Source of the DNA: Octopus vulgaris
Taxonomy: Eukaryota
Reading direction: 5' to 3'
Assembly: GCA_951406725.2 (NCBI GenBank)
Contig: OX597829.1
Coordinates: 11,036,001 to 11,100,000, forward strand
Length of the DNA stretch: 64,000 bases
The notes beneath the pieces are model-generated. The model ran no database searches, was not told the origin of the DNA, and worked only from the letters and a program-made list of their open reading frames with translations. Made by a program: the position numbers and the translations under genes. Each line of letters opens with the position of its first letter. Position 1 is the stretch's first letter. This document shows, piece after piece, positions 34,973 to 62,800 of the stretch.

Positions 34973-35222
34973 TATATATATATGTGTGTGTGTGTGTGTG
35001 TTTGCGTGTGTGTGTGAATAAATATTTTATAGCAGTTCTATAGAATTATTTCATAGGCTAAATAATCACCGTAAAGGTAAAATCATAAATAGAAAATAGC
35101 GGTTCTAGATGTAAGACAAATACTTTTTTTATATTCGTTCTCCGCACACATCTTAGCCAGTATACATTCAGTGAAGCTTTACATAGGAGCAGGAGTAGCT
35201 GTGTGGTAAGTAGCTCGCTTAC

Positions 35223-37251
35223 TGCTACCAAGTTGTCGCGTTGTTTTTCGTCGCGGTGGAAGTCATGTCGTACGTGAAAAATTGAACATTTGAAGCATGA
35301 CCACAGGTAAAGCATTTGGTTTTTGGGAGCTTAGTGGGGTCTGCTGTTTGTATTTAAGTATTTTTTCGAACAGGGATCTCCACTGGGTTCCAGGCATTTT
35401 TTTGCCAGGAGTCATGCAAGAAGATTCACTTCGTAGTGAGAATTGAGTTGGGAGGCGCGTCCCTCCGAAAATGTTTTGGAATTTTCTATGACTGTGTTTG
35501 TGCCCTTTCAAGATTTTTACCATAAAGGATAAGAGTACAGCCAGAGTTGGACGGAATACTATTTGTGCTGTGAAGGACTACCAGTTTGGATTACCAGAGT
35601 AGCAGAATTGTGTTGTGTTGCCATTTTCGACTATCTTCCTTCGCTCTTTCTTCTCCTGTCTGTCTTTCTGATCATTTTTGAGTTTCTTTATAGACTTTCA
35701 TTTGAACATTTTGATTTTTGTTTGTGGATTTTTATTATTTTTGTTTTGGCTATCAACATGGCAACTGTGAAATCCGCTTTGGAGTGGAAAATTGTGGCCC
35801 CCGAAAAATGGTTGAAAAATTATACGGAGAGAACGGTGGTGTTAAGGACTTGTTCCAGGGTCCTTGACACCATCAAGGTCTTCTCTCAGGAAGAAATTAA
35901 GGAGTTGGCAGACTATCTGCAGGGGGGAGAAGTATGGAACTGTGTGTGTACTTTTTGACGCCCCTGTGGAAGCACGTGATTTTACGAGCATGCTTTGGAG
36001 GGGGAGAAAATTTTGTTTCTCCCTACTTACGGCGGTAGAAAGTTGACAAGAGCCTGGATGTGTGGTCTGCCACCCGGTATAGAGGCCGAGTGGAAAGAAG
36101 ATACTATCCGTCGGGTCCCGGGTGGCGGGCCTGCCAGGCTTTTAAATGTAAAAATGTGGCCTGCGGTTGATTGGGTTGGGTCAAAAGCAATTTTGACCCT
36201 ATGGATCCAATCAGTCGATGATCTGGTTTTACCAGATTTTTTAACAATGGCCGGTTCCAGGTATCTGGTGATGGTTGAGGGACGTCCCCCCAAGTGACAT
36301 CTGCGCCTGGAATCGGGCCATATAAAGAACTGTTGCCGGGAACAGACAGGGGTCTGGAACAGTTGGCTGAAAAGGTGTCCCCTAGTCCCCCACTGGAGGA
36401 AAAAGTCGAGGAGGAGGCAACATCCTCGAAAACAAAGGGGGAAAAAGAAAGAAGGGGCAACAATGGTTTCCTACCGATGAATCCTGAGACGGCGGGGCGG
36501 GGGTCCTCCGGAGATGTCGGAGGAATTCCATCCTACCGTCGTAAAAAGAAAAAAGAAGAGAAAGAAGAAAAATGGGGCATTGCCGGCGACGGCATGTCCT
36601 GAGATCACTTCGGTTGGATGTGTGCAACCAGAGCGGAGAGAAGATAACCTCGTCATTCGGATGTGTGCCACCGAGCGAGGGAGTTGAGGCCCCTCCCAGT
36701 AAAAGTGGTTAAGAATATATGTTCTATCTCAGTGGAAGAGCTATTGACAGTTTCGTGGAGAATGATATGGATAATCGGGTCCTGAGAAACCTGACTTGTA
36801 TAGACAGCCCAGAGTGGCCTTCGCAGGTGGCTGCTCTGGTGCTGGAAAGAAAGTACTGTGATCTTAGAATTGACTCATGTAAAAACGAGAATTATAGAAT
36901 TCTTTTTTGGAGACCCGGATTGCAGTTTCAGGAATGCCTGCAAGTTGCAAGGAAATTGCACGGGGAAGATTTGTAGAGGTTTATCGCCTCTAATTTGTGT
37001 ATAAATTATGTTTTGTATTTGTGTAGACTTTTGAGTTCAAATATATTGTATTTTAAACTGTAAGAGGGTTAATACCTCTGTATATGTGTTTTTAAAGAAC
37101 AATGTTTTAAAGAAGCAGAGGGTCGGCGGGCGCTTTCTCTCTTCTCCCATCCTTATCATCTTGTATCATTATCATTCGCCTCATCAATGTCTTGTCTAGC
37201 CCGCAAAGCTACCCATCTCTGTACTGCCTCTATGGCAAATGAAACGAATAA
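35223..37251 (+). mobile_element. ORF1-only (HAL1-like) non-autonomous Tx1-related retroelement
   Basis: 15-bp TSD (35208-35222 / 37252-37266); decayed ORF1 homologous to the Tx1 ORF1 at 59848; no EN/RT; 3' TGCC-N5-GGCA hairpin + AATAAA. Confidence 0.85.
35758..36976 (+). pseudogene. Tx1-like ORF1 protein, frameshifted, decayed zinc knuckle
   Basis: TERTVVLRT, RGEKYGTVCVLF, LFLPTYGGRK, VMVEGRPPK*HLRLESGHIKNC align with EKRTVVFKT, RGRAYGTVDVRF, VLFPSYRGRR, VQVEGRKPTCYACGKKGHIRVDC. Confidence 0.8.
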
Positions 37252-59848: not shown

Positions 59849-62800
59849 AAAAATTACGAGTATTGGTTTCCCACAAAACTGGGAAACCTATAGAAAGTTT
59901 TTCTTCCAAAGTAGTTCAAAAAAGCAGTTCAAAAATTCCAATTCCCACCCCCATTCGGGGGAGGGGCACGAAAATAGTCTGGCAGGACTATATATAGTCA
60001 CGTAAATAAAAAGCCACAGTGGCTAACAGTTCAACGGTAAGAAATTATTCAATTATTTCCCGGTAAAACCGGAGAACAAGACAGTTCAGCAACGTTTAAA
60101 GGCAAATTTTCAGTAGTAGGAATTCAACAATTAACAACACAGCAAAACTCTTACCGGGAAGAAAACGCGTCCACACCGTAGTACGGTAGGCAAAGTCACT
60201 CTTCTGTCAGTGAGGTTAGCAAAGCTACTTACCACACAGCCACTCCTGCGCCTACATATATATATATATATATATATATATATATATATATATATATATA
60301 TATATATACGCATATATATATATATGTGTGTGTGTGTATGTATGTTTATATATATGTGTGCGTATGTGTGTGTATACATATACATATATAAATACATATA
60401 TACATACAACATAGAACTATACATTTAGTTGATTCATTTCAAGTGTGGACGTGTACAACATTCCTATTTAATAGGTGATGATATTGAAATCTACACTTTT
60501 GACCATATCAATGAACTAAGTGACTCATAACGATTATCTCTAACTTACAAAACGCTAACTATAATAAATAATAATAAAAAATAAGTAAAAAAAAAAAAAG
60601 ATTTTACGCATAAGATCTTGACTAATGTTCTTCCGGATACGGACATGCATCTTTTCTTTGTGAAGATTCCTAAAAATCTATCCAGTTACGATGATTTCTC
60701 CTCTTCTTTGTTCTTCTTTTTCTTGTTCTTCTTCTTCTTGTTCTTCTTCGTTGTTAACCATAGGAATTGTAGATTATCACATGAATTTATTCATTCTATT
60801 GATTCAATAGGTGTTTACCCTCCTATCAAGTTAAATTTTCCTCCACTTTATTCCATTAAAGGCAGTACCTTGTCGAACTATTTCAAAGAAGAACCAACAA
60901 TAAACATTGACAGAGATTTCTGCAAATGAACTCTCATTTTGTTCAGTTTGATTCTCCTATTGATTTTGTCATTGATTTAGTATTGATTGTGGTTAAGGTT
61001 TTTGTGTTCTTAAAACCTTTCTTGTGTTCGACTTTCACAGACAAATCCTAAAGAATCCTATTATAAATGGCAGTCATACATTAAGTTGTATAGGTTTTCA
61101 TTCCTCAGTTACATGTATACTTACAACTTAGGCTTAATTTAAATCATTTCATAAAGAAACGGTAACACTTTATACCTAAATGGCCACTAACAGATGATTT
61201 TGTTCCTCTTCGACAATATATGTTGTTTCAATGTACTTCAACTTCGATTTTTCTATTTTATTTTTTATCTATTTTTTTATCCATTAACAACATATCGATG
61301 ACAAATATATATTTGGAAATCAAGTCGACATTAGTCTATACTCTATCTTTTGTTATAATATTAAAATAAATGTATAAAGAGAGGTGGGGAAAAGAGAAGG
61401 AAAAAGACAAAACAACAAAACGACAATACAGTCAGCAAATGTCGAGAAACAGCGAATGAATGAACTGTTATCAAAAGACTTAATAAAAAAAAATACTAAC
61501 TATGAAGGGAGAGAAAGGGGGAGAGGGAGAGAGGAACAGAGAATGCATAGATACACACGTGGGTAATTATATATATATACACACACACATATATATATAC
61601 ATATATATACATATATACATGTGTATTAATATACATATATATATATATATATATATATATATATATATATATATATATATACTCCTCTGTGTGTAAATTA
61701 CCACGTGTAATTATATATATATTGTATATATATATATATATATATATATATATATACATTCATACGTATATGCATACATAAATATATACATACATACATA
61801 CACGTACATATATATATATTAACCAAAGAAAAATATTCCTGGTAATTAACTCCTGCACTAACATGGAAGAGTTGTGCAAAGCCTTTGTCTTATTCTTATA
61901 TAAACATACCTACAGACACACACGCACACACACATACACACACACATACACACACATACACACACACTCACACACAAGTCATTTACGTGCATACACTCAT
62001 ACACACATACACATAAAGTCTGTATAATTATTTATAAATGTGAATATCTTTATATGTTTGCGTGCGTCTATATATATATATATATATTCATTTATATATG
62101 TATGCATGTATGTATGTATGCATGTATGCATGTATGTATGTATGTATGTATGTATGTATGTATGTATGTATGTATGTATGTATGTATGTGTACGATTACT
62201 GGGGTCAGTTGTTTTTTTATACTTGATTTTTTTTTCACCTGACTGCCCAACTTGTTTCGTTTGGAATTATCAGCAGGTACCTAAAAAGAAATAGTTAATT
62301 AATGCTTTCATCACCATAAAGATAGATCTCCCAGTTTGAGAGATCAAAATCGATGTTATTACTTTCAACCCATCCACTAGTCAGCCATTTAAACACTCTT
62401 CCCTTCATCTTTTCCCTCTCTTTCTCTCTTCCTATTTCTCTGCACACCTCATTCTGTGTTTCTCTTTCTTCCTCTCTCTCTTTCTCTCATTCTCTCTCTC
62501 TCCCTGTCTCTCTCTCTCTCTCTCTCTCTCTCTCTCTCTCTCTCTCTCTCTCTCTCTCTCTCTCACTCACTTGCCATTCCCATCACAAAACCTAAGTGTC
62601 AATATTCTGAAATAAACTGAAACTGCAATCTCTCTCCATTTAAGAGCTATATATATATTCTTGCACACGCACGCACGCACGCACGCACGCACACGCACAC
62701 ATACACATACGCGCACGCGCATCACAAACACGCACTCGCAGAGAGAAACATCCTTGTATCGCCTTATTACGATATATATGCGAACACACGTACTACATAT

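Follow-up and report, generated by a model that had tools for sequence, protein, structure and literature searches.

The window, a stretch of 64,000 nucleotides of the Octopus vulgaris genome, contains two retroelements, here called A and B, each of which splits a copy of a SINE at the same base, GTGTGGT/AAGTAGCTT (the slash marks the insertion site; Table 1). The earlier note on this DNA had described both interruptions at one nucleotide and in the sense orientation of the SINE, and the junctions, when re-read, agree on both counts. Element B sits directly behind its SINE head (60252-60231) and shows, after its 3' hairpin, AATA at the junction without a poly(A) tail. Three empty SINE sites had also been pointed out in the window and are indeed present, but the position given for one of them, 47584, is the far end of a minus-strand SINE, whose site is 47965/47964.

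Table 1. Split and empty SINE copies and the two inserted elements in the window
Feature	Position	Strand	Basis or remark
SINE 5' head split by element A	35186..35207	+	sequence reading
5' target-like copy before element A	35208..35222	+	sequence reading
Element A, 2.0-kb ORF1-only non-autonomous element, older family	35223..37251	+	alignment of copies
Element A decayed ORF1, homologous to B ORF1	35758..36977	+	without ORF2 trace
Element A 3' hairpin TGCC-N5-GGCA	37225..37237	+	z-score -0.33
SINE remainder behind element A	37252..37534	+	sequence reading; resumes at 37252
SINE 5' head split by element B, holds A box	60231..60252	-	aligns to the genome's tRNA-Gly genes
Element B 5' target copy	60214..60230	-	first 9-10 bases target-derived, then element-carried leader ending TAACC
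Element B, full-length 5.4-kb L1/Tx1-type LINE, window copy frameshifted	54778..60213	-	domains, family copies
Element B ORF1 with CCHC knuckle, two pieces in window copy	58422..59824	-	
Element B ORF2: predicted apurinic-type endonuclease, RT, zf-RVT	55006..58404	-	broken near 56550 and 56130
Element B 3' hairpin TGCC-N5-GGCA	54792..54804	-	present in predicted fold; z-score only -1.25
SINE remainder behind element B, starts with target word, holds B box	54390..54777	-	resumes at 54777
Empty SINE copy	21091..21514	+	site between 21112 and 21113
Empty SINE copy, partly deleted	40706..41032	+	site between 40716 and 40717
Empty SINE copy	47583..47986	-	site between 47965 and 47964
Empty SINE copy, older AAGAAG variant	37646..37794	-	site 37784/37783

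By its predicted endonuclease, reverse transcriptase (RT) and ORF1, element B is a LINE of the L1/Tx1 type, where 'Tx1' is not meant in the strict clade sense, the RT tree being without any named Tx1 reference. Pfam assigns to ORF2 an N-terminal apurinic-type endonuclease (PF03372), an RT (PF00078) and a C-terminal zinc domain (PF13966), while the separate ORF1 carries a CCHC knuckle (PF00098, E 1.4e-5). The best PDB matches of the endonuclease are L1 endonuclease structures, and the solved structure closest to the RT is that of human L1 ORF2 (E 2e-33), ahead of R2 (E 9e-20). Among the protein matches listed a named Tx1 element is absent, and the closest named relatives are proteins of Argonauta (65% in the RT region), lancelet, sea cucumber and coral. 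Family B has young intact copies: its members are 98-99% identical, 36 of 39 start within the first 16 bases, and intact natural copies encode an ORF1 of 467 amino acids (e.g., L117) and an ORF2 of 1133 amino acids. All 30 bins of the element are covered by contigs from four sequencing runs, whose RNA origin is a guess and which give neither start nor strand; one of these contigs crosses the 5' junction. Older relatives with 72-87% amino-acid identity (L216, L218, L220 and L178) share the insertion site, and the first three group with B and L217 in a single clade (100/99). In a sister lineage, 0 of 20 ends lie at the SINE site and the hairpin loop of the endonuclease differs from that of the on-target clade. 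Targets for divergent ORF2 loci come from 10 read of 20 chosen, and Rfam returned nothing for L211-L220, so that this search gave no RNA-gene target for the sister lineage.

Element A belongs to a more diverged family, in which the 3' ends of copies are 85-93% identical to the window copy, and no DNA similarity to B was found. The two are linked through ORF1, weakly in the window copy (a Pfam search with its decayed ORF1 gave nothing meaningful) and at 29% (E 9e-25) for intact relatives, and they also share the short 3' hairpin. The 2-kb A is an ORF1-only dependant and not a second autonomous Tx1. Short units of this kind (n = 23, 1.9-2.7 kb) fall into at least 6 groups, with several families coexisting. 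They are repeated as discrete units with an ORF1 homologue, and none of the 23 has a trace of ORF2, features also of HAL1-like elements. Their ORF1 is under purifying selection (median dN/dS 0.21 for 28 pairs from 8 copies; the highest value, 0.71, lies within one family), part of which may predate the loss of ORF2. What their 3' ends have in common with B is the hairpin plus AATAA only, with no BLASTN match to B, and their ORF1 is just 22-36% identical to any autonomous ORF1 compared. The partner is therefore deduced from the shared end and site, which make a B-type ORF2 the likeliest agent of their mobilisation in trans.

The target has a tRNA-like head, A and B boxes and a dispersed, high-copy distribution, all of which mark a tRNA-derived SINE. 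In alignment to the genome's tRNA-Gly genes its head scores above 500 of 500 shuffles; Rfam and ARAGORN gave no tRNA call on it, Rfam returning low-complexity matches below threshold. Named octopus SINEs include OR1 and OK. OR2 is described as a CORE SINE (PMC4758252). Empty exact sites number about 76,000 (75,961 exact 31-mers genome-wide). It had been proposed that insertion ruins the Pol III promoter: the A and B boxes are indeed separated, but filled sites account for about 1% of the total (0.8-1.3%), too few for more than a negligible effect on the SINE family. The older element families have 14 of 17 listed ends in the AAGAAG variant, compared with 5.7% of today's exact sites, and the younger ones have all 48 listed ends in the AAGTAG variant. 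The absence of young families from the older variant (0/48) falls short of significance (p 0.06), so that a temporal succession accounts for these counts no less well than altered specificity does.

Throughout the genome the LINE and its shorter dependants use this common tRNA-Gly-like SINE as a landing pad, with about 1,000 insertions at the same base. A genome-wide count, in which the hairpin stem was fixed by the search pattern, gave 1,330 element 3' ends with the shared hairpin and AATAA (control, 5), and 1,060 of them (80%) are directly followed by the exact 8-base target word. Of the 100 ends listed for one contig (C1), 93 are on-site; the 14 non-exact ends comprise 7 on-site variants, 5 off-site ends, 1 background hit and 1 at a second site in the same SINE. 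The DNA searches scored the best 40 of 524 and the best 40 of 1,504 candidates and are thus biased toward copies near the query; with queries free of SINE sequence, 30 of 30 element B loci found by an element-only 3' query end at the target word (26 lead into SINE body and 4 into the leader of the next element), and 23 of the 28 family A copies with an intact 3' end are on-site (2 further copies lack the end). Chance is excluded, since exact sites make up 1.4e-5 of all strand-positions and yet every one of these B ends meets the target word. A LINE has been called target-specific when more than 20% of its flanks are of one sequence type (PMC4494074), and B, A, the C1 list and the genome-wide ends all qualify. 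The collected flanks are not random but dominated by the SINE target, and the proposal of the earlier note, that a tRNA-derived SINE of high copy number is used in a site-specific way, holds genome-wide. Specificity is nevertheless not absolute, the off-site share being 5 of 28 A copies and 5 of 99 listed C1 element ends.

These are independent insertions, with unique outer flanks and, in 5'-truncated copies, variable target-site duplications of about 9-17 bp. For example, truncated L129 has a 16-bp duplication with a locus-specific variant on both sides, and off-site L074 one of 15 bp. Full-length copies carry a fixed, element-type piece of the target at their 5' end: in B the 5' target stretch ends TAACC in 32 of 32, even at 15 loci where the SINE itself is of another variant. 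The duplication of 15-17 bp reported for the window is therefore a target-site duplication only in part, because in full-length copies the element brings its 3' portion. Such a leader would rebuild the site, which would explain the mixed head-to-tail arrays. Tandem arrays could also be local duplications in part; copies are 99.2% identical in one array and 98.3% across arrays, which does not tell local duplication from serial insertion. Folding of the 5' and 3' ends against shuffles revealed no unusual stability, and no ribozyme is claimed.

An alternative that we consider improbable holds that the elements have a weak preference for AAG-type words anywhere, the SINE dominating by its abundance, aided by pairing of leader RNA with DNA or by Pol III factors at the A box. 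Off-site insertions (L074, L143, L158, L249, L253, L254 and L256) do start with AAG or a similar A-rich word. Moreover, the off-site A copies are 5'-truncated in 5 of 5 cases, compared with 13 of 23 on-site copies not visibly truncated (p 0.03-0.04), so that leader pairing may contribute to site choice. However, a 3-base word occurs tens of millions of times, and four fifths of the ends nonetheless have the exact 8-base word. In addition, truncated family A copies, from whose final product the leader is absent, are still on-site in 10 of 15 cases, and old, diverged SINE copies also serve as targets. We hold it to be very improbable that the elements really aim at a tRNA gene or some other conserved sequence of the host, and that the SINE is hit merely for its resemblance. 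The alignment of the SINE head to tRNA-Gly genes would agree with such a target, as would the precedent of Dada transposons, which target tRNA A boxes (PMC8869645), but the tRNA-Gly genes (3 ARAGORN-confirmed of 7 fetched) continue GGT-AGAAT, without the AAG(T/A)AG word. The 3' flanks read, judged by eye and with the tRNA comparison covering Gly-type candidates only, are SINE or element leaders, with no recognisable tRNA gene among them. Finally, the idea that SINE head and body belong to the element and are copied along as cargo, as in transduction or hitchhiking, deserves hardly any credence: full-length copies do carry a short target-like leader and SINEs behind B are somewhat more often of the GCTAACC variant (18/27 versus 42/100 empty sites, p 0.03), but in pairwise comparison (35 B loci, 27 empty SINEs) B tails are 99.5% alike while the SINE behind them is as diverse (89.1%) as empty SINEs (87.8%), outer 5' flanks are shared in 0 of 28, truncated copies still lie between head and body with locus-specific duplications, and the SINE head is absent at array junctions.

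The full best explanation, which we regard as probable, is an L1/Tx1-type LINE lineage that has become a specialist for a single position in a tRNA-Gly-like SINE, directly after the A box. Target-primed reverse transcription is the established model for LINE insertion. Applied to element B, with nicking, strand order and trans-mobilisation as inferred steps, the apurinic-type endonuclease would nick the bottom strand of GTGTGGT/AAGTAGCTT, and the freed T-ending primer would pair with the A-rich RNA end, ahead of which the RT may recognise the small hairpin. The cut in the top strand would lie as much as about 17 bases farther along. Full-length RNAs begin with a partial copy of the target, seen as the fixed element-type leader, and the leader cDNA probably anneals to the target overhang to yield a precise 5' joint. 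This annealing would also restore a cleavable site, on which further copies could stack head to tail. The ORF1-only families with the same hairpin and site would be mobilised by the ORF2 of B, their own ORF1 being kept under selection, and the SINE would offer a very large pool of targets whose disruption is mostly harmless.

Tx1 elements that target other transposons are already known; the addition is a SINE as target. They include Xenopus Tx1 in Tx1D, crocodilian Tx1-Mar in Mariner-N4_AMi, Tx1-9_AMi in Harbinger elements, and Tx1-8_Crp and Tx1-4_AMi in LTR elements (PMC4494074). As in these systems, the octopus has an apurinic-endonuclease LINE with a preference for landing inside another transposon, and with non-autonomous partners that share the target. 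In contrast to what the main-text parts of PMC4494074 describe, where no SINE target for a Tx1-clade LINE appears, the octopus target is a tRNA-derived SINE, used at one base and in one orientation, with its tens of thousands of exact sites still empty; the partners, 2 kb long, code for ORF1 and are not snRNA-headed SINEs, and the elements carry a target leader. The literature searched, with Repbase, Dfam and most subscription papers outside its scope, yielded no LINE with a SINE target. Other Tx1 families are distinguished by their targets, namely U2 (Keno), 5S (Mutsu), a tRNA-Leu spacer (Dewa) or microsatellites (Kibi, Koshi) (PMC4494074, PMC3706591). The octopus LINE likewise uses a multicopy target as a low-harm landing site but, unlike Keno, Mutsu and Dewa, it enters a selfish repeat with changing sequence instead of a host gene, at a site that separates the A box from the B box. 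Bipartite non-autonomous LINEs that have an ORF1 comprise HAL1 (L1 clade), HeT-A (Jockey) and Ag-Sponge (CR1) (PMC5786205). The short octopus elements also encode ORF1 only and would rely on an autonomous partner, whereas the relevant passage of PMC5786205 names no example derived from Tx1 or sharing a SINE target. Insertion at or next to a Pol III A box recalls Dada, but these are DNA transposons in true tRNA genes (tRNA positions 8-13), and the main text of PMC8869645 does not contain the word 'SINE'. In O. vulgaris itself, 13 recently active L1-Tx1 families with 421 insertions have been reported and SINEs amount to 11.6% of the genome (PMC13282606). Similar families may be within the sequence library of that study; the available parts of the paper hold no target or nesting analysis.

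With these elements, SINEs join the target list of site-specific LINEs, and do so with about 1,000 insertions rather than a few. Repeat annotation is affected by the nested LINE/SINE structure, since SINE halves will get merged into element consensus sequences. On-target and off-target sister lineages coexist in one genome, a natural setting in which to test how the specificity of the endonuclease evolves. Because young intact copies exist, the mechanism can be tested, in particular whether the short target-homologous leader accounts for the high share of full-length copies, a point relevant to retrotransposon-based gene insertion. More tentatively, and with the balance somewhat against it, the LINE lineage may have tracked its changing selfish target over time while carrying a piece of it, the leader directing 5' joining and rebuilding the site, a guild of ORF1-only elements sharing that site, and endonuclease and RNA leader co-evolving with a target that is not the host's own. 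If true, this would be a three-level system of LINE, half-LINE and SINE.

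The window corresponds to G000:C16:11036001-11100000, in a genome of 2.8 Gb. In the window, element A (an ORF1-only element of 2.0 kb) and element B (a full-length LINE of 5.4 kb) interrupt one SINE family at a single shared base and in the SINE-sense orientation, so that this claim of the earlier note agrees with the window sequence. Among the neighbouring features, the two decayed RT-coding elements with their TAT/TTA arrays presumably resemble a microsatellite-targeting R4/Dong-type element, and we take the two ORFs near the left end to resemble parts of a Penelope-type RT.

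Insertions, empty SINE sites and other features of the window
Feature	Position	Strand	Remark
Element B	60213-54778	-	interrupts SINE
Element A	35223-37251	+	interrupts SINE
Unfilled SINE copy	21091		
Unfilled SINE copy	40706		
Unfilled SINE copy	47975	-	
Unfilled SINE copy	37794	-	older variant
RT fragment of another LINE	53423-54247	-	immediately past SINE housing element B
Decayed RT-coding element	23601-26364	-	beside TAT/TTA array
Decayed RT-coding element	29817-32128	-	beside TAT/TTA array
Long TAT/TTA array	22583-22884		
Long TAT/TTA array	27821-29028		403 units
Two ORFs	8158-9265		207 and 158 aa
32-bp unit	44388-44485		perfect, 3.1 copies
95-bp unit	34673-34857		2 copies

The proposed site-specific use of the SINE was upheld genome-wide once element 3' ends were tabulated. 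Queried with element sequence only (524 candidates, the best 40 scored), the genome returned 30 B loci, all 30 of which stop at the target word AAG(T/A)AG, with the SINE body next in 26 and the start of another element in 4. Every 3' end of 39 young B copies, taken over the whole length, lies at this word, and in 36 of the 39 the start falls among the first 16 bases. For element A, the best 40 of 1,504 candidates were scored and 30 loci examined: 22 end in the SINE, one in the leader (the target-like stretch at the 5' end) of another element and five off-site, while two have no 3' end. A 3' hairpin followed by AATAA matches 1,330 times versus 5 times with a reversed control, and 1,060 of the 1,330 ends are directly followed by the exact word AAGWAGYT. 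On contig C1, 86 of the 100 hairpin matches listed carry the exact word (sequence past it was checked for a subset); the other 14 comprise seven on-site variants, one second site in the same SINE, five off-site ends and one background match. The B tail is found in 13 of these 100 ends, and most on-site insertions are therefore something other than young B. Unfilled exact sites number 75,961, plus 4,551 with the older AAGAAG variant, and 589 exact filled junctions continue into the SINE body; sites make up 1.4e-5 of strand-positions and about 1 % of them are filled. Rare insertion sites occur at L143, L256 and L086; they are the central part of the SINE (AAGTGTCTT), the start of an apparently different SINE family (a putative label, given by reading) and a target-like word close to a SINE tail.

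That the target is a high-copy SINE derived from a tRNA also holds, since its head aligns to the tRNA-Gly genes of the genome better than to each of 500 shuffles and empty sites are so numerous. With the cut immediately downstream of the A box, insertion parts that box from the B box, as had been suggested. The target word is absent from the tRNA-Gly genes (Gly-type candidates only, seven fetched and three confirmed).

A composite unit, in which the SINE halves travel with the element, is excluded: compared pairwise across 35 B loci, the final 100 bases of the element are 99.5 % identical and the adjoining 100 bases of SINE 89.1 %, a diversity like that of empty SINEs from 27 bystander copies (87.8 %). 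Outer 5' flanks are common to B loci in 0 of 28 cases, and truncated copies show true, locus-specific target duplications of about 9–17 bp. At L129 a private SINE variant is present on both sides of the insertion, and the off-site locus L074 has a 15-bp duplication.

ORF2 of element B encodes an apurinic-type endonuclease, an RT and a zf-RVT domain, and ORF1 a CCHC knuckle (Pfam). The window copy carries frameshifts, but in some natural copies, L107 and L117 among them, both frames are open, at 467 and 1133 aa. Because of these domains, and because human L1 ORF2 is the best solved relative for both endonuclease and RT, B is placed in the L1/Tx1 group. Among the protein matches listed there is no named Tx1 sequence, and the closest named RT relative (65 %) comes from Argonauta, which makes an octopod the probable host.

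In element A, ORF1 is decayed and ORF2 absent. It is one among many families of 1.9–2.7 kb, 23 units of which fall into at least six groups, with neither a trace of ORF2 nor DNA similarity to B in any of the 23. Some families retain open frames of 307–415 aa, their ORF1 is 29 % identical to that of B (E 9e-25), and the median dN/dS of its N-terminal domain is 0.21 (8 copies, 28 pairs). They resemble HAL1, HeT-A and Ag-Sponge, described as non-autonomous LINEs with an ORF1 (PMC5786205). From the common hairpin, end and site, we infer that the short families are moved by the ORF2 of B. One chimeric copy, L120 (G000:C4:127352400-127359100), was seen, in which 2.15 kb of a short element is fused to B from position 1673, placing a short-type ORF1 ahead of B's ORF2.

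Relatives from 100 % down to 60 % were listed by an endonuclease search (best 150 of 8,573 scored), and 10 divergent loci were examined. At 72–87 %, surviving ends lie at the same site (L216, L218, L220; also L178); L217 adjoins the end of another element at the older word, and L219 has no recoverable ends. In a tree without L178, L214 and L219, which have too little RT, L216, L217, L218 and L220 form one clade with B (support 100/99). A sister lineage (60–69 %) terminates in AATAAAGAAA, and of 20 ends fetched from it 0 lie at the SINE site. The endonuclease hairpin loop probably sets specificity; that of the sister lineage is unlike B's, at the same position as altered in an aligned loop-graft structure, and the stem sequence of its terminal hairpin differs. 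Its members L211, L221, L223, L226 and L227 all precede one unrelated repeat sequence, and L213 and L225 have a different flank common to both. Judging from these common flanks, the sister lineage may be a second family of this genome with a specific target. By hand count among the ends listed, two tail types lie in the older SINE variant in 14 of 17 cases and three only in the newer one (48/48). Succession in time would explain this split; a shift in specificity is a possible source.

The duplication of 15–17 bp described earlier stands only in part for full-length copies: it is partly target-derived, but its 3' part is carried by the element, because, among full-length B copies for which the two junctions are available, 32 of 32 have a 5' target copy ending in TAACC, and these include each of the 15 loci with a different sequence in the SINE itself (a SINE head lies directly upstream at 11). 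Short families behave likewise (L172 and unit 4 of L161). In two full-length A copies (window 35208-35222 and L079) the 5' target copy shows a variant C without counterpart in the 3' copy, hinting that A's carried leader may reach further upstream; one copy of B, L091, is altered in the same way.

The element RNA would thus begin, at a putative start, inside a copy of the target, the cDNA of the leader would anneal to the target overhang, and every insertion would rebuild a site. Mixed head-to-tail arrays fit such annealing and rebuilding: four short units at C1:29.27 Mb, a B preceded by seven tandem short units of 2.0 kb (G000:C1:223689300-223715250; L126, L162-L164), three B copies on C9, and a young B, a short unit and an older B at L113-L114. 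About 8 kb from the array at C1:223.7 Mb lies a further short-element end on the opposite strand. The arrays may in part be local duplications, which counts against site rebuilding by the leader. Leader annealing also fits a weak trend, in that all off-site A copies are truncated (untruncated: 0/5 off-site versus 13/23 on-site; p 0.03–0.04).

Known targets of Tx1 elements are other transposons, RNA genes and microsatellites (PMC4494074, PMC4640811, PMC3706591), whereas the B lineage targets a SINE; in the text examined, a study counting 13 L1-Tx1 families with recent activity in Octopus vulgaris holds no target analysis (PMC13282606). No SINE-targeting LINE was found in the largely open-access literature searched, Repbase and Dfam lying outside its reach. 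The use of the SINE as a target is real and well supported. Judged without these two databases, it extends the targets of site-specific LINEs by a new class, SINEs, and the system adds two features, a guild of ORF1-only elements and a target-like leader.
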